In this document: positions 13,861 to 62,757 of the stretch, piece by piece | Position numbering within the stretch: position 1 is the stretch's first letter | How the letters are laid out: each line of letters opens with the position of its first letter | Origin: Squalus acanthias | Lineage: Eukaryota | Assembly (NCBI GenBank): GCA_030390025.1 | Contig: JASTWF010000337.1 | Span: forward strand, 372,001-436,000 | Length of the DNA stretch: 64,000 nucleotides | Direction: 5' to 3' | Translations under genes and position numbers: made by a program | The notes under the pieces: generated by a model | Told to the model about the DNA's origin: nothing | Database searches by the model: none | Seen by the model: the letters and a program-made list of their open reading frames with translations, nothing else

Positions 13861-16797
13861 TCAGTACCCCATTCCTGCTTTCTCGCCATACCCCTTGATC
13901 CCCTTAGTTGTGAGTGTTATATCTAACTCCCTTTTGAATATATTTAGCGAACTGGCCTCAACAACCTTCTGTGGAAGAGAATTCCATAGATTCACCACTC
14001 TCTGGGTGAAGAAGTTCCTCCTCAGCTCAGTCCTAAATGGCTTCCCCTTAATCCTTAGACTGTGACCCCTGGTTCTAGTTTTCCCTACCATTGGGAACAT
14101 TCTGCCCGCATCTAATTTGTCTAAACCAGTCAGGATTTTAAATGTCTCTATAAGATCCCCCCTCATTCTTCTGAACTCCAGAGGATACAAGTTCAGTTGA
14201 CCCAATCTTTCTTGATATGTCAGTCCGGCCATCCCAGGAATCAATCTAGTGAACCTTCGCTGCACTCCCTCAATAGCAAGAATGTCCTTCCTTAAGTTAG
14301 GAGACCAAAACTGCGCACAATACTCCAGGTGTGGCCTCACCAAGGCCCTGTACAACTGTAGCATCACCTCCCTACTCCTGTACTCAAATCCCCTTGCTAT
14401 GAAGGCCATCATTCCGTTTGCTTTCTTGACTGCCTGCTGCACTTGCATTCCCACCTTCAGTGACTGATGTACCATGACGCCCAGGTCTCGTTGCACGTCC
14501 CCTTTCCCTAATCTGCCACCATTCAGGTAATAGTCCGCCTCTCTATTTTTACCACCAAAGTGGATAACCTCACATTTATCCACATTGTACTTCATCTGCC
14601 ATACATTTGCCCATTCACCCAACCTGTCCAAGTCACTCTGTAGCCTCCTAGCATCCTCCTCATTGTTCACACTGCCTCCCAATTTAGTGTCATCCGCAAA
14701 TTTGGAGATATTACATTTAATCCCTTCGTCCAAATCATTAATATATAATGTAAACAGCTGGGGTCCCAGCACCGAACCCTGCGGTACCCCGCTGGTCACT
14801 GCCTGCCATTCTGAAAAGTACCCATTTACTCCTACTCTTTGTTTCCTGTGTGCCAACCAGTTCTCAATCCACGTCAACACATTACCCCCAATCCCATGTG
14901 CTTTAACTTTGCTCACCAATCTCTTGTGTGGGACCTTGTCGAAGGCCTTCTGAAAGTCCAAATACACCACATCTACTGGTTCCCCCCTGTCCACCCTATT
15001 GGAAACATCCTCAAAAAATTCCAGAAGATTTGTCAAGCATGATTTCCCTTTCACAAATCCATGCTGACTTGGACCTATCATGTCGCCACTTTCCAAATGG
15101 TCTGTTATGACATCTTTAATAATTGCTTCCATCATTTTACCCACGACCGATGTCAGGCTGACTGGTCTATAATTCCCTGCTTTCTCCCTCCCTCCTTTTT
15201 TAAAAAGAGGGGTTACATTGGCCACCCTCCACTCCATCGGAACTGATCCAGAGTCTAAGGAATGTTGGAAAATGATCGTCAATGCATCCACTATTTCCAA
15301 GGCCACCTCCTTAAGTACTCTGGGATGCAGACCATCAGGCCCCGGGGATTTTTCAGCCTTCAGTCCCATCAATTTCCCCAATACCTTTTCCCGACTAATA
15401 AGGATTTCCCTCAGCTCCTCCCTCTTACCAGATCCTCTGACCCCTTTTATTTCCGGCAGGTTGTGTGTGTCCTCCACAGTAAACACCGAACCAAAGTACT
15501 TGTTTAATTGATCTGCCATTTCCTTGTTCCCCATTACGACTTCCCCTGTTTCCGACTGCAGGGGACCTACGTTTGTTTTTACTAACCTCTTTCTTTTTAC
15601 ATATTTATAGAAGCTTTTGCAGTCCATTTTAATGTTCTCTGCAAGCTTCCTTTCATATTTTATTTTCCCTGCCCTAATCAAACCCTTCGTCCTCCTCTGC
15701 TGAGTTTTGAAGTTCTCCCAGTCCCCGGGTTTGCTGCTACTTCTGGCCAATTTGTATGCAACTTCCTTGGTTTTAATACTATCCCTGATTTCCCTTGTTA
15801 GCCATGGTTGAGCCACCTTCCCTTTTTTATTTTTACGCCAGACCGGGATGTACAATTGTTGTAGTTCATCCATGCGATCTCTAAATGTCTGCCATTGCCC
15901 TTCCACTGATAGCCCCTTAAATATCGCTTGCCAATTTAACCTCGCCAATTCACGCCTCATACCCTCAAAGTTGCCCTTATTTAAGTTCTGGACCATGGTC
16001 TCTGACTTAACTGATTCCTTCTCCATCCTAATGTAGAACTCCACCATACTATGGTCACTCTTCCCCAGGGGGCCTCGTACCACAAGATTGCTGATTAGTC
16101 CCTCCTCATTACACAACACCCAGTCCAGGATGGCCTCCCCTCGAGTTGGTTCCTCAACATATTGGTTTAGGAAACCATCCCTTAAACACTCCAGGAAATC
16201 CTCCTCCACCGTATTGCTTCCAGTTTGAGTAGCCCAATCTATATGCATATTAAAGTCACCCATGATAACTGCCGTGCCTTTTTTGCACGCACCTCTGATT
16301 TCCTGTTTCATACCCTCCCCCACCTCACTACTGCTGTTTGGAGGTCTGTACACAACTCCCACTAACGTTTTCTGCCCTTTGGTGTTCTGCAGCTCAACCC
16401 ATATTGATTCCACATCCTCCAAGCTGATGTCCTTCCTAGCTATTGCATTAATCTCCTCTTTAACCAGCAATGCTACCCCACCCCCTTTTCCTTTTATTCT
16501 ATCCTTTCTGAATGTTGAATACCCCTGGATGTTCAGTTCCCAGCCTTGATTGTTCTGGAGCCACGTCTCTGTAATCCCAATCACATCGTATCCGTTAACA
16601 TCTATTTGCACAGTCAATTCATCCACCTTATTACGGATACTCCTTGCATTAAGACACAGAGCCTTTAGGCTTGTTTTATTAACATCCTTTGTCCGTTTAG
16701 ACTTATGATTTAGTATGGCCCTTTGTGTTTCTTGCCTTTGTTTACTCGGCCTTCCCCTATTATTGCTCACCCTTCTAACATTTGTTTCTGACTGCAT
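13861..16797 (-). CDS. CR1 ORF2: APE-like endonuclease plus reverse transcriptase, 978 aa, uninterrupted
   Basis: EN motifs LNARSI, ITETW, MGDFN, LDWVL and SDH. RT motifs [19 protein letters not shown] and FADD. Confidence 0.95.
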   Translation of the reverse strand: MQSETNVRRVSNNRGRPSKQRQETQRAILNHKSKRTKDVNKTSLKALCLNARSIRNKVDELTVQIDVNGYDVIGITETWLQNNQGWELNIQGYSTFRKDRIKGKGGGVALLVKEEINAIARKDISLEDVESIWVELQNTKGQKTLVGVVYRPPNSSSEVGEGMKQEIRGACKKGTAVIMGDFNMHIDWATQTGSNTVEEDFLECLRDGFLNQYVEEPTRGEAILDWVLCNEEGLISNLVVRGPLGKSDHSMVEFYIRMEKESVKSETMVQNLNKGNFEGMRRELARLNWQAIFKGLSVEGQWQTFRDRMDELQQLYIPVWRKNKKGKVAQPWLTREIRDSIKTKEVAYKLARSSSKPGDWENFKTQQRRTKGLIRAGKIKYERKLAENIKMDCKSFYKYVKRKRLVKTNVGPLQSETGEVVMGNKEMADQLNKYFGSVFTVEDTHNLPEIKGVRGSGKREELREILISREKVLGKLMGLKAEKSPGPDGLHPRVLKEVALEIVDALTIIFQHSLDSGSVPMEWRVANVTPLFKKGGREKAGNYRPVSLTSVVGKMMEAIIKDVITDHLESGDMIGPSQHGFVKGKSCLTNLLEFFEDVSNRVDRGEPVDVVYLDFQKAFDKVPHKRLVSKVKAHGIGGNVLTWIENWLAHRKQRVGVNGYFSEWQAVTSGVPQGSVLGPQLFTLYINDLDEGIKCNISKFADDTKLGGSVNNEEDARRLQSDLDRLGEWANVWQMKYNVDKCEVIHFGGKNREADYYLNGGRLGKGDVQRDLGVMVHQSLKVGMQVQQAVKKANGMMAFIARGFEYRSREVMLQLYRALVRPHLEYCAQFWSPNLRKDILAIEGVQRRFTRLIPGMAGLTYQERLGQLNLYPLEFRRMRGDLIETFKILTGLDKLDAGRMFPMVGKTRTRGHSLRIKGKPFRTELRRNFFTQRVVNLWNSLPQKVVEASSLNIFKRELDITLTTKGIKGYGEKAGMGY

Positions 16798-16844
16798 ATT
16801 ACTTCCCCCTGTTTCGCTACATAGGTTCCCATTCCCCTGCCATA

Positions 16845-17283
16845 TTAGTTTAAATCCTCCCGAACTGCTTTAGCAAATATTACCCCGAGGACATCGGTTC
16901 CAGTCCTGCCCAAGTGCAGACCGTCCCTTTTGTACAGGTCCCACTTCCCCCAGAACTGGTTCCAATGCCTCAGGAATTTGAATCCCTCCCTCCTGCACCA
17001 CTGCTCAAGCCACGTATTCAATCTCACTATCCTGTTCTCTCTATTCTGATTAGCACGTGGCCCTGGTAGCAATCCAGAGATTACTACCTTAGAGGTCCTA
17101 CTTTTTAATTTAGCTCCTAGCTCCCTCAATTCTGCTTGTAGGACCTCTTCCCGCTTTTTACCTATATCGTTGGTACCTACATGCACCACGACAGCTGGCT
17201 GTTCACCCTCCCTCTTCAGAATGTTCTGCAGCTGCTCCGAGACATCCTTGACCCTTGCACCAGGGAGGCAACATACCATCCTG
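16845..17283 (-). CDS. CR1 ORF1 C-terminal part (SGNH/esterase-like domain), 5'-truncated
   Basis: VCCLPGARVKDV...VHVGTND...DGLHL...EDLN*. GTND and DGLH are the esterase-like motifs known from CR1 ORF1. Confidence 0.88.
16848..16854 (-). promoter_or_regulatory. Candidate -1 ribosomal frameshift slippery heptamer U_UUA_AAC at the ORF1/ORF2 overlap
   Basis: ORF1 ends GAU UUA AAC UAA. The -1 frame UUU AAA CUA AUA UGG CAG GGG... is open for 19 codons and is in frame with the ORF2 AUG at 16797. Confidence 0.6.
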
Positions 17284-18230
17284 GAATATACCCAATGACT
17301 GAGCCTCCACAACCCTCTGGGGTACAGAATTCCAAAGATTCACCACCCCGTGTGTGAAGAAATTTCTTCTCATCTCAGTTCTGAATGGCCTACCCTTTAT
17401 CCGGAGGCTGTGGCCCCTGGTTCTAGACTCCCCAGCCAAGGGAAACATTCTCCCAGCATCCACTCTATCAAGCCCTGTAATAATTTTGTATGCTTCAATG
17501 AGATCCCCTCATTTTTCTGAATTCAAGAGAATACAGGCCTAGTTTACTCAATCTCTTCTCATACGACGGTCCCGCCATCCCAGGAATCAATCTCGTGAAC
17601 CTTCATTGCACTCCCTCTATGGCAAGTATATCCTTCCTTAGGTAAGGAGACCAAAATTGTACACAGTACTCCAGGTGTGGTCTCACCAAGGCCCTATATA
17701 ATTGGAGTAAGACTTCTTTACTCCTGTACTCAAATCCTCTTGTAATGAAGGCCAGCATACCATTTGCCTTCCTAATGGCTTGCTGCACCTGCACATTCAC
17801 TTTCAGTGACTCATGTACAAGGACACCCAGGTCCCTTTGAGCATCTGCATTCCCCAACCTTTCACCATTTAAGAAATAGTCTGCCTTTCTGTTTTTTCTA
17901 CCAAAGTGGTTAACTTCACATTTATCCACATTATATTCCATCTGCCATGTTCTCGCCCACTCACTAAGCCTGTCGAGATTCCCTTGAAGCCTCTTCACAT
18001 CTGACACTGCCACCTAGCTTTGTATCATCAGCAAATTTGGAAATGTTACATTTAGTCCCCTCATCCAAATCATTGATATAGATTGTGAATAGCTGGGGCC
18101 CAAGCACCGATCCTTGCGGTACCCCACTAGTCACAGCCTGCCATCCTAAAAAAGACCCGTTTATCCCTACTCTGTTTACTGTCTGTTAACCAATTCTCAA
18201 TCCATGCTAGCACATTACCCCCAATTCCAT
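17284..18230 (-). mobile_element. Remainder of the older CR1 that hosts the young insertion
   Basis: Closely similar to 8570-9515, with frameshifted RT C-terminal ORFs. Confidence 0.92.
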
Positions 18231-18922
18231 ATTATGGCTATTAGATCAAACCTGTTAATTTCTATCTGTGCTATTAATTCATCTATTTTGTTGCGAATGC
18301 TTCGCACATTCAGAGATAGTGCCTTTAGCTTTAACATTTCTATTTTTCCTGATGTCACCTTAATCACTGATGCCTTATTACCTTTGTTACTCTTCCTGAC
18401 TCACTGCTTATTTTTACCCAAAACTCTACTCTGCTCTAGAGCCTTGACATTTTCTCGCTGCTTTTAAATTTACTCTTTCCTGAATCCTCCCACCCACCCC
18501 GCCCCCCCTTCATTAGTTTAAAGCCCTGTCTACTGTCCTAGTTATTCGGTTCGCCAGGACACTGGTCCCAGCCCAGTTTAAGTGGAGCCCGTCCCAACGG
18601 AACAGCTCCCTCTTTCCCCAGTACTGGTGCCAGTGCCCCATGAATTGAAACTCCTTCCTCCCACACCACTCTTTGAGCCACACATTTAAACCTCTAATCT
18701 GTTTATCCCTATGCCAATTTGTGCATGGCTCAGGTAACAATCCAGAGATTATTACCTTTGAGGTTCTGCTTTTTAATTTTGATCCTAGCTGCTCAACCTC
18801 ATTCCTAGTTCTACCTATGTTGTTGGTTCCTATGTGGACCACGACAACTGGAACGTCCCCCTCCCACTCCAAGTTCTTCTCCAGCCGCGAGGAGATGTCT
18901 TTAACCCTGGCACTGGGCAGGC
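18231..18922 (-). mobile_element. CR1 fragment spanning the ORF1 esterase domain and the start of the ORF2 endonuclease
   Basis: ORF 18513-18980 reads ...HIGTNN...DGLHL...DRALN*. Downstream is LKALSLNVRSIRNKIDEL. Confidence 0.88.
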
Positions 18923-18954
18923 AAGAGAGAGAGAGAGAGTGTGACAGAGCACAG

Positions 18955-23940: not shown

Positions 23941-25470
23941 ATAGAAACATAGAAACATAGAAAATAGGTGCAGGAGTAGACCATTCGGTCCTTTGAGCCT
24001 GCACCGCCATTCAATGCGTTCATGGCTGAACATGCTACCTCAGTACCCCATTCCTGCTTTCTCGCCATACCCCTTGATCCCCCTAGTTGTGAGTGTTATA
24101 TCTAACTCCCTTTTGAATATATTTACCGAACTGGCCTCAACATCCTTCTGTGGTAGAGCATTCCACAGATTCACCACTTTCTGGGTGAAGAAGTTCCTCC
24201 TCATCTCAGTCTTAAATGGCTTCCCCTTTATCCTTGGACTGTGACCCCGGTTCTAGTTTTCCCTAACATTGGAAACATTCTGCCCGCATCTAATTTGTCT
24301 AAACCAGTCAGGATTTTAAACGTCTCTATAAGATCCCCCCTCTTTCTTCTGAACTCCAGAGGATACAAGTTCAGTTGATCCAGTCTTTCTTGATATGTCA
24401 GTCTGGCCATCCCAGGAATCAATCTAGTGAACCTTCGTTGCACTCCCTCAATAGCAAGAATGTCCTTCCTCAAGTTAGGACACCAAAACTGCACACAATA
24501 CTCCAGGTGTGGCATCACCAAGGCCCTGTACAACTGTAGCATCACCTCCCTACTCCTGTACTCAAATCCCCTTGCTATGAAGGCCATCATGCCATTTGCT
24601 TTCTTGACTGCCTGCTGCACTTGCCTTCCCACCTTCAGTGACTGATGTACCATGACGCCCAGGTCTCGTTGCACCTCCCCTTTCCCTAATCTGCCACCAT
24701 TCAGGTAGTAGTCTGCCTCCCTATTTTTACCACCAAAGTGGATAACCTCACATTTATCCACATTGTACTTCATCTGCCATACATTTGCCCATTCACCCAA
24801 CCTGTCCAAGTCACTCTGTAGCCTCCTAGCATCCTCCTCATTGTTCACACTGCCACCCAATTTAGTGTCATCTGCAAATTTGGAGATATTACAATTAATC
24901 CCTTCGTCCAAATCATTAATATATAATGTAAACAGCTGGGGCCCCAGCACCGAACCCTGTGGTACCCTGCTGGTCACTGCCTGCCATTCTGAAAAGTACC
25001 CATTTACTCCTACTCTTTGTTTCCTGTGTGCCAACCAGTTCTCAATCCACGTCAACACATTACCCCCAATCCCATGTGCTTTAACTTTACACACCAATCT
25101 CTTGTGTGGGACCTTGTCGAAGGCCTTCTGAAAGTCCAAATACACCACATCTACTGGTTCCCCCCCGTCCACCCTATTGGAAACATCCTCAAAAAATTCC
25201 AGAAGATTTGTCAAGCATGATTTCCCTTTCACAAATCCATGCTGACTTGGACCTATCATGTCGCCACTTTCCAAATGGTCTGTTATGACATCTTTAATAA
25301 TTGATTCCATCATTTTACTAACCACCGATGTCAGGCTGACCGGTCTATAATTCCCTGCTTTCTCCCTCCCTCCTTTTTTAAAAAGAGGGGTTACATTAGC
25401 CACCCTCCACTCCTTCGGAACTGATCCAGAGTCTAAGGAATGTTGGAAAATGATCGTCAATGCATCCACT
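23941..25470 (-). mobile_element. 1.53-kb 5'-truncated CR1 in satellite, copy 1
   Basis: Same subfamily as 13773-17283. Junctions are ...CAAGAATCAG|ATAGAAAC and ...GCATCCACT|satellite. Confidence 0.96.
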
Positions 25471-60239: not shown

Positions 60240-62757
60240 TCACTAACTTAGCTTAGAGAGCTTGGGCACAGAGCTGTGGAGAATCGCAATCGGAGTGGAA
60301 GCTGAGAATTTGGTGATAGTAGGAATTCGGTGGCAAGGTGGAAGGCAGTTCTCATGCCCAACTCAAAAAAAGGACTGGAGCTGCAGAACCCGAGGACTCG
60401 AAGATAAGTATCTAGGTTAAGTATCTAGTTATCTAATATTTAGGTTCTGTGTGTTTAGTGATCTCAGTGGTTCTTGTTAAGCTAGAATAAATAATTAGTC
60501 TTTGGTTAATTCACTTTAAGGATCAAAGAGAAAAATAACAGTATAATTTAATATATTCAAATAATTTAGACCTAGTTAACAGCAATTATATAAATAATCA
60601 CCTAAGGAGGTTTATTAAGGTATAATTAGAATGGAGAGACAGCTGCGACCCGTAGCCTGTAATTCCTGCACCATGTGGGAACTTCAGGATGCTTCATGTG
60701 TCCCAGAGGCCCACGTGTGCAGAAGGTGCCTCCAGCTGCTCGACCTCATGCTGAGGGTTTCTGAGCTTGAGGTACAGCTGGATTCACTGCAGGGTATACG
60801 GGTGGCTGAGTGTTTCCTGGATCGCAGGTTCCAGGAGCTGGTCACCCCACAATCAGATAGAGTTCAGAATAGCAAGTCGGTGGCCATCCGGAAGGATAGG
60901 AAAAGGCAGTGCAGGAATCCTCCGGGAGTGTGGCACTCTCAAACCAGTATTCAGCATTGAATTCTAGTGAGGATGATGACACCTCAAAGGAGTGCAGTCC
61001 TGAGCCTGGCACTGTGAGGCAAAGAACTGCAGGGGGGCACAGCAAAGTGTAGGAACACAGTAGTAATTGTGAAATTGGATAGTCTGGGAGACAGACAGGC
61101 AGTTCTGCTACCACCAACGTGAGTCCCGTATAGTATGTTGCCTTGCTGGTGCCAGGGTAAGGGACATCACGGAGAGGGAGCAGAACATTCAGCGGGGGGA
61201 AGGGGAAGAGCCAGAAATCGTGGTCCATGTCAGAACCAACGACATAGGGAGGAAGACGGTTGAAGTCCTGCACTCAGAGTTTAAGGAGCTAGGGAGGAAG
61301 TTAAAAAGCAGGACCTCAAAGGTAGTCATTTCTGGATTATGCCTAATGCCACGTGCTAGTTAGAGTAGAAATAGGAGGATATGGCAGGCTAATTCATGGC
61401 TACAGACATGGTGCAGGAGGGAGGGCTTCAGATTCCTGGGACATTGGGACCTGTTGTGTGGCAGGAGGGACCTGTTCAAGATGGACGGGTTGCACCTGAA
61501 CAAAGCTGGGACCAATATCCTTGCGGACAGGTTAACTAGTGCTGTGGGGGTAGGTTTAAACTAACGTGGCAGGGGGTTGGGCACCAGGATGTAATATTAA
61601 AAAGTAGAAACAAGGTGCACAGAGGACTGTGAGAGACAGAGTTAGAAATAATACAGAATTAGGTGGGATCATAGAAAATACAAAGAGGTCTAAGTTAGAT
61701 TTGGCGGGCATGTGTGTAAATGCACGACGTGTGGTTAATAAGGTTGGTAGGAGCAAATAGCCACGTGGGAATATGATGTAGAGGTGATAACTTAGATCTG
61801 GCTCAAAAAAAGTGAGGATTGGATGCTTAATATTCTGGGTACAAGGTATTCAGGAAACAGAGGGAAGGAAAAAAAAGTAGGGGTAGCATTTTTGATAAAG
61901 GAAAATATTAGAGCTAGAAAGAGAGAATGACCTTGAGGGGTCAAAGACAAAATCTATTTGGTTGGAGTTAAGAAATAATAAAGGAGTTATTCAGCTACTT
62001 CGTGTATTTTGTATAGGTCACCAAATAGTGGGAAGGAGATCGAAGAGCAGATTTGCAGTGAAATTACTGAGAGATGCATGAACTACAGAGAAGTGATAAT
62101 GAAATACTTTAACTACCCCAATATTGAATGGGGCAGTGATTGTGTTAAGGGCAGAGAGAGGGGGTGGAATTTCTGAACTTTCTTGATCAGTAAGTTCTCT
62201 GCCCAACGAGGAAGGTTGGCATTGCTGGATCTAGTCCTGGGAAATAAAGTGGGTCAAGTGGAGATTGTCACATTGGGGAAGCATCTCGGGAATAGTGATC
62301 ATAAGGTTTAGATTAGTTATGGAGAAGGACAAGGAGCAATCTAGAATAGAAATACTGAACTGGAGGAGGGCTAATTTCAGAGAATTGAGGAGAGATTTGT
62401 CCCGGGTAAAATGGAGTCAAAGACTGGCAGGCAGAAATGTAATGGAGCAATGGGCGGGCTTTAAAGAGGAGATGGTTCGGGTACAGTCTAGGTACATTCC
62501 CACAAGGGGGCAAGGGAGGGAAACCAAAGCCAGAGCTCCCTGGATGACGAAGGAGTTAGAGAGTAGGATGAAGCAGAAAAAGGGGGCATATGATAGATGT
62601 CAGCTTGATAATCAGGCTGAATATAAAACGTACAGAGGAGAAGTGAAAAAGGAAATAAGAGGCATAAAGAGATAGTATGAGAAGCGACTGGCGGCTAACA
62701 TAAAAGGAAATCCAAAGGTCTTCTATAGGCATATTAACAGTAAAAGGGTTGTCAATA
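60240..62757 (+). mobile_element. Degenerate 5' half of a CR1: 5' UTR, ORF1 (zinc finger, coiled coil, esterase) and ORF2 endonuclease/linker
   Basis: ATG at 60631 opens CNSC-x16-CRRC followed by a Leu heptad. DGLHLNKAGT...GVGLN* ends at 61564, and EN remnants follow. Confidence 0.88.

Follow-up and report, generated by a model that had tools for sequence, protein, structure and literature searches.

An ordinary CR1 copy in the genome of Squalus acanthias carries a real and deeply conserved translational signal. The signal probably serves programmed −1 ribosomal frameshifting, by which CR1 LINEs with an esterase ORF1 would produce an ORF1–endonuclease (EN)–reverse transcriptase (RT) fusion protein. 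At the level of sequence, the evidence is the slippery signal itself, its phase, its invariance at synonymous positions, the open linker that leads from it to the EN, and the lack of a conserved AUG. The window, i.e., the whole 64-kb stretch of DNA that was analysed (contig JASTWF010000337.1, assembly GCA_030390025.1), contains the focal junction and two further ones, with the following features:

16848–16854, minus strand: slippery heptamer U_UUA_AAC in X_XXY_YYZ phase, made up of the last base of an Asp codon and then the Leu and Asn codons of ORF1
16845–16847, minus strand: ORF1 stop UAA, adjoining the heptamer (UAA or UAG across lineages, UGA in none)
16845–17287, minus strand: 3′ remnant of ORF1 with its SGNH/GDSL esterase domain (PF13472), 99.3% identical to copy L005 from 17287 down
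16834–16837, minus strand: G-run at +11 to +14 past the heptamer, conserved among lineages; candidate stimulator or candidate protein-binding site
16651–16847, minus strand: basic linker, free of stops when read in the −1 frame, that connects the putative shift site with the endonuclease; AUGs out of frame at 16843, 16832 and 16822, in frame at 16797
13861–16854, minus strand: ORF2 frame, 997 codons counted from the heptamer; encodes an APE endonuclease, whose first conserved Asn is at 16650, and a reverse transcriptase
18513–18522, minus strand: second junction, in a decayed family B copy; heptamer and UAA, the latter overlapped by an AUG of the ORF2 frame (UAAUG)
61555–61564, plus strand: third junction, in a decayed copy of a different family; heptamer and UAA

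The focal element is plainly a CR1 LINE with an esterase ORF1. Its ORF1 matches the SGNH/GDSL esterase family PF13472 in Pfam (E 8.7e-13) and, by profile, the ZfL2-1 ORF1 esterase 4c1b (E 7.6e-41); PF03372 and PF14529 (EN) and PF00078 (RT) are present in its ORF2. The closest named protein relatives come from cartilaginous fish. By eye, the junctions match rows labelled CR1 in Table S2 of PMC13343379, and the element shares with canonical vertebrate CR1 an esterase ORF1, an APE–RT ORF2 and, in published consensus rows, the same junction. The copy is 5′-truncated at about 17287, within ORF1, and is embedded in older CR1 debris; from 17287 down it is 99.3% identical to the longer copy L005 elsewhere. 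Its family (A) has a full-length ORF1 of about 314 aa and is young and abundant, 146 of 150 scored matches being identical across 71 aa.

On the minus strand the focal ORF1 ends GAT TTA AAC TAA, just as the initial annotation had read it, with the heptamer at 16854–16848 in X_XXY_YYZ phase. The −1 frame, which had been described as stop-free and identical to that of ORF2, runs open from the heptamer over 997 codons until a stop at 13863–13861, spans 978 aa counted from the ATG at 16797, and encodes both EN and RT according to Pfam. The same annotation placed the AUG at 16843 out of the ORF2 frame, correctly so (it lies in the +1 frame), and concluded that simple stop–start reinitiation there does not account for ORF2. 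An in-frame AUG (16797) lies 47 nt past the stop, preceded by three out-of-frame AUGs, and this copy taken alone is therefore compatible with reinitiation. The motif had also been noticed at two other ORF1 ends, and indeed TTTAAACTAA occurs exactly three times in the window when both strands are searched (16854 minus, 18522 minus, and 61555 plus), and each occurrence terminates an esterase ORF1 (3/3). Both of these other copies are decayed, their −1 frames meeting stops after 28 and 25 codons; for the 18522 copy, the majority sequence of its family has an open −1 frame.

Junctions were collected with several kinds of query, some lacking the ORF1 tail, some consisting of linker DNA, and some including the tail, the last of which bias families A, F, and J. 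A further sample was taken from 60 evenly spaced 10-kb stretches of the genome. An HMM ending short of the ORF1 tail yielded 209 distinct segments, 195 of them in nine families (A–D and F–J) and 14 singletons; loci L132–L279 were left out of this HMM and family step. The ten lineages compared below are the nine genome family majorities together with L131, a contig from another organism; birds are not among the sources of the junctions seen. Exact TTTAAACTAR is found in 174 of the 209 copies, 158 times in phase with ORF1, and the remaining copies mostly carry single substitutions or indels, matching decay after insertion. Five of the six HMM matches from the evenly spaced stretches carry the signal; the sixth, a weak match, does not run on into a junction. 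The nine-letter motif occurs once per element, at the junction, in 19 of 20 longer copies.

All ten lineages (nine families and one foreign contig) have the same nine letters, TTTAAACTA. Free synonymous variation at the heptamer had been named at the outset as a result that would speak against frameshifting; no such variation is seen in the ten lineages, whose ORF1 ends are 39–94% identical in protein and 22–95% identical at four-fold sites. Its wobble T is retained whether the codon specifies Asp, Ala, Gly, or His. Synonymous change is possible in 26 invariant ORF1 columns, of which 22 vary synonymously and 4 use a single codon, and all eight invariant upstream Leu columns (8/8) use two to six codons; in the ORF1 ends, TTA accounts for 22% of Leu and AAC for 37% of Asn codons. 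Judged from these alignments, the heptamer is conserved past the need of the protein. Further downstream, G is invariant at +11 to +13 in 10/10 lineages and at +14 in 9/10. An in-phase U_UUA_AAC also lies inside ORF2 of family I; because it is tolerated there, the heptamer alone must be insufficient, and context must matter.

Protein sequences extend the pattern. An alignment of 21 ORF1 proteins shows no variation at the terminal L and N, and of 229 proteins retrieved, 145 carry a DGLHL-like anchor close to the C-terminus (a pattern that excludes a catfish L2-like group with a different ending), of which 136 terminate in L-N. Named sources of such proteins include sharks, rays, coelacanth, mormyrid fish, and turtles; one lizard protein has L-K at its end. 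Among 60 distinct tails, the residue preceding L-N is one without a possible U-ending codon in a single case, compared with 28 and 20 cases at the two preceding positions; position −7 is equally low in such residues, but is filled by small hydrophobic ones. An ORF1 group whose tail is 6 aa longer still terminates in Y-L-N, as seen in protein only. In a published consensus table (Supplementary Table 2, PMC13343379), whose cells were read over 400 letters and thus provide no denominator for either count, 16 of the 22 nine-letter matches shown (of 23) lie by eye at a CR1-group ORF1 end, and, for synonymous variants of the motif, 23 of 50 places were displayed, not one of them at an ORF1 end. The row labels of these matches, as read, are alligator, crocodile, bowfin, bullfrog, elephant shark, stingray, sawfish, catshark, dogfish, coelacanth, and halosaur. 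Scans of bacterial genomes and viral contigs contained no vertebrate-type CR1 junction among the loci analysed (69 loci from one scan were taken no further).

In 10/10 lineages the EN is encoded in the −1 frame, behind a linker of 35–73 codons that is free of stops in the family majorities. Stops between heptamer and EN had been proposed as a second thing to look for; none interrupts the −1 linker of any family majority, compared with 2–13 in each of the other two frames in the eight genome families tabulated. The family D majority is shifted by a G-run, and the frame of this family was assessed separately; family D copies with ORF1 and ORF2 in frame were not counted as evidence, as the upstream G-run varies both ways. 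Upstream of any in-frame AUG, 282 codons are stop-free. The probability of this under shuffling goes down to 0.004 in a single family, and the product of these probabilities, about 1e-10 assuming independent lineages, is overstated, the lineages being related.

The position of potential start codons is not conserved. An in-frame AUG precedes the EN in 8/10 lineages, with the first in-frame Met at codons 3, 3, 16, 19, 30, 43, 52, and 57, and in the other two lineages there is none before the EN. A UAAUG overlapping the stop in the ORF2 frame is confined to families B and J (2/10) and is absent in the focal family; the −1 codon that overlaps the stop is CUA, and the codon after it is freely variable. 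In L131, the first Met lies past the first EN motif. The young family I, with intact frames of 983 and 1080 codons in copies 0.3% from the majority, has its first Met at codon 255, past EN motifs at 54, 80, 184, and 251. Because this Met follows four located EN motifs, an AUG-started ORF2p of family I would be devoid of endonuclease.

Two hallmarks of programmed −1 frameshifting, a phased heptamer and a −1 ORF open from that heptamer, are thus present in 10/10 lineages. Since the invariant U_UUA_AAC abuts the ORF1 stop and the open −1 frame leads into ORF2, slippage by a minority of ribosomes is likely. The majority would stop at the end of ORF1 and release ORF1p; the minority would slip back one base at U_UUA_AAC and go on to make an ORF1–linker–endonuclease–RT fusion. 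In such an event the Leu and Asn tRNAs would presumably re-pair on UUU and AAA by tandem slippage, decoding would restart at CUA, and the junction would read ...L-N-L.... A low shift rate would then set a gag-pol-like ratio of ORF1p to polymerase. The family A fusion would read ...D-L-N-L-I-W-Q-G and measure about 1,310 aa for a full element. The trans-frame peptide originally predicted, EDL/FKLIWQG, needs correcting in this respect, as tandem slippage would give ...E-D-L-N followed by L-I-W-Q-G. The broader idea put forward with it, a gag-pol-like ORF1–EN–RT fusion, gains support from the invariance of the signal, the open linker, and the late first AUG of family I.

No stimulatory RNA structure was found at the junction, where the conserved G-run at +11 to +14 is a candidate stimulator. 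Canonical −1 signals have a 3′ structure 5–9 nt downstream (PMC3542737). Folds of 60, 90, and 130 nt disclosed no local downstream structure above shuffles (z between −1.95 and +1.55; pseudoknots not explicitly modelled), a duplex scan across the 20 longer copies found no shared long-range pairing partner, the best partners differing by family, and Rfam had no match at the junction. A two-tier G-quadruplex is predicted in only 5/10 lineages (B, C, D, F, and J). Earlier work reports that G-quadruplexes are able to stimulate −1 shifts at U_UUA_AAC in reporters (PMC3919603), that a nearby stop is required at the shift site of the virus PEMV, and that U_UUA_AAC is among the most shift-prone heptamers on mammalian ribosomes (both PMC5009743). 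Conceivably, the pause comes from the adjacent stop and the G-run instead of a classical pseudoknot.

Were ORF2 reached by AUG-independent termination–reinitiation, ribosomes would restart near the UAA or UAG in the −1 frame and make a free ORF2p, and the conserved letters would be a reinitiation or pausing signal. This unlikely explanation has a precedent in mammalian L1, would, just like frameshifting, call for a linker with no stops and no fixed AUG, and is favoured by the null search for a frameshift stimulator. However, it leaves unexplained both the exact X_XXY_YYZ phase with its wobble U upstream of the stop and the constant −1 frame; moreover, the stop-overlapping codon is CUA with a variable successor, and UGA, which would turn it into the near-cognate CUG, appears in 0/10 lineages. 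Reinitiation at an AUG is less probable still as the main route, whether a UAAUG couples stop and start, as it does in SART1, or ribosomes scan as far as the nearest in-frame AUG (16797 in the focal copy). The position of that AUG is not conserved across lineages, family A presents three out-of-frame AUGs first, and for family I, without an AUG until codon 255, the explanation fails altogether; the heptamer and the open upstream linker would be left without a reason. Nonetheless, the SART1 precedent, the UAAUG in the ORF2 frame of families B and J, and the focal-family AUG 47 nt downstream speak for this route, which could operate alongside frameshifting in those families.

Equally remote is a role outside translation, in which the motif is kept for the C-terminal Leu-Asn of ORF1p or as an internal promoter or splice signal, ORF2 being expressed from a separate transcript. 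L-N does close the last predicted ORF1 helix (AlphaFold), and the nine letters also appear in the AT-rich 5′ region of two shark consensus rows in the published table. Yet a protein need for L-N is unable to fix synonymous letters, the alignment of the ZfL2-1 esterase structure 4c1b reaches no further than profile position 312 of 316, and L-N is missing from the ends of catfish L2-like ORF1s. A promoter or splice site would not require ORF1 phase and would still leave family I without an AUG, and a general DNA- or RNA-level site sits poorly with one occurrence per element, at the junction, in 19/20 longer copies. Transcriptional slippage was rejected by reasoning, the runs being just three T and three A; a splice acceptor was rejected for want of a pyrimidine tract after the motif.

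The proposed frameshift resembles retroviral gag-pol and nidovirus ORF1a/1b expression, where a phased heptamer ends the first ORF and the polymerase ORF, in the −1 frame, has no start of its own, and it would likewise fix the ratio of structural protein to polymerase; the nidovirus IBV uses U_UUA_AAC itself (PMC3542737, PMC5009743). Unlike these systems, CR1 is a non-LTR retrotransposon, its stop directly follows the heptamer, no pseudoknot or stem–loop was found, and there is no protease, so the fusion would remain intact unless cleaved by the host. L1 and silkworm SART1 share with CR1 a bicistronic LINE RNA and low ORF2 output, and the UAAUG of families B and J resembles that of SART1. Mammalian L1 ORF2 reportedly initiates independently of its AUG. 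L1 and SART1 use reinitiation and make free ORF2p, whereas CR1 has no conserved AUG position and a conserved slippery heptamer. Among APE-type non-LTR elements, Dictyostelium TRE5-A and TRE3-A are reported to require a −1 frameshift for ORF2 (PMC5911963, a review); the idea is therefore not new for non-LTR elements overall. These elements differ from CR1 in clade and in ORF1, and the likeness is drawn from that review statement. In the literature searched, beyond whose reach lies early CR1 work that may discuss the junction, no report of CR1 frameshifting was found: the available portions of PMC13343379, PMC11303007, and PMC3905857 give no mechanism for CR1 ORF2 translation and use "frameshift" 0 times, and "CR1" occurs 0 times in the first 300,000 characters of PMC5009743.

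LINE ORF2 translation has been described as an open question (PMC3894237), and the LINE cases studied so far point to reinitiation. If the −1 shift is true, the CR1 polymerase would be an ORF1–EN–RT fusion, annotations that begin ORF2 at the first AUG would be wrong at the N-terminus, and engineered CR1 constructs would require the native junction. A deeply conserved shift site without obvious structure would also provide a new model for recoding.

A second kind of recoding signature is found in distant esterase LINEs from metagenome contigs (group L133–L204). The heptamer is absent from their fifteen junctions; instead, the stop is UGA in 15/15, the next base is C in 14, and the next three are CUA in 10 (L150 and L189 being possibly the same sequence). 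UGA-CUA is the context of type II readthrough, as in alphavirus replicase (PMC3542737), and it matches this group, not the focal element. No extended stem–loop was seen past the UGA in the five copies folded (z −1.8 to +1.8). These junctions point to the same ORF1–ORF2 fusion, which would here be made via readthrough. Because two distinct recoding signatures occupy the same place, selection for a fusion protein fits better than reinitiation. It is possible, and suggested here tentatively, that a recoded ORF1–ORF2 fusion is an ancient rule for esterase CR1-group LINEs, with the vertebrate −1 site kept since before the split of sharks and bony vertebrates, the invertebrate-type distant group employing UGA-C readthrough, and the −1 signal needing no folded stimulator but relying on the adjacent stop and the G-run. 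In most vertebrate species the CR1 group is described as the dominant retrotransposon (PMC13343379); if the ancient rule is true, most vertebrates would have a dominant LINE whose polymerase is gag-pol-like and co-assembles with ORF1p. Within the distant group, the EN start motif lies in the ORF1 frame in 10/15 junctions by a strict pattern, and in L138, 329 open ORF1 codons are followed by one UGA and then by 1022 open codons with EN and RT.

A single UGA separates ORF1 from an in-frame ORF2 in 15 distant esterase LINEs of metagenome contigs, with junctions devoid of the slippery heptamer U_UUA_AAC that ends CR1 ORF1:

L133, L136, L138, L141, L144, L147, L150, L153, L169, L180, L183, L189, L194, L203, L204: UGA-junction LINEs (n = 15)
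L138:990: UGA junction of L138, whose ORF1 bears a PHD besides the esterase

The base following the UGA is C in 14 of the 15, and CUA directly follows it in 10. In L153, L169 and L194, Met is absent upstream of the start of the APE endonuclease (EN). On its sequence, this junction is a candidate for programmed readthrough. Among database ORF1 proteins, P0141–P0229 form a large group of esterase ORF1s from metagenome assemblies, ending in Y-L-N with a tail longer by 6 aa; if confirmed by DNA, the slippery signal would reach beyond vertebrates. Two vertebrate-type CR1 proteins, P0008 and P0136, carry bacterium and plant labels in public databases, likely a result of contamination.

Family I (L430, L431), a young CR1 family, has an ORF2 frame without Met for 255 codons, and a second in-phase U_UUA_AAC at codon 276 within ORF2. 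The G-run immediately 5′ of the heptamer is unstable in family D (e.g., L285, L286, L293, L298), and because of this instability the affected copies hold ORF1 and ORF2 in one frame. Such in-frame copies may reflect homopolymer errors, or may constitute one clade. The stingray protein P0032 is a natural ORF1–ORF2 fusion resembling them.

Two features of the window involve CR1 copies:

17287–18930: nested insertions
20600–44300: long tandem-repeat array, known from repetitive translations alone

At the former, the focal CR1 copy is inserted within an older CR1 RT fragment, which itself splits a family B copy shortly past its EN start. The array contains several near-identical, 5′-truncated CR1 ORF2 fragments (e.g., at 24228, 26252 and 42661), possibly reflecting array duplication or an assembly effect.
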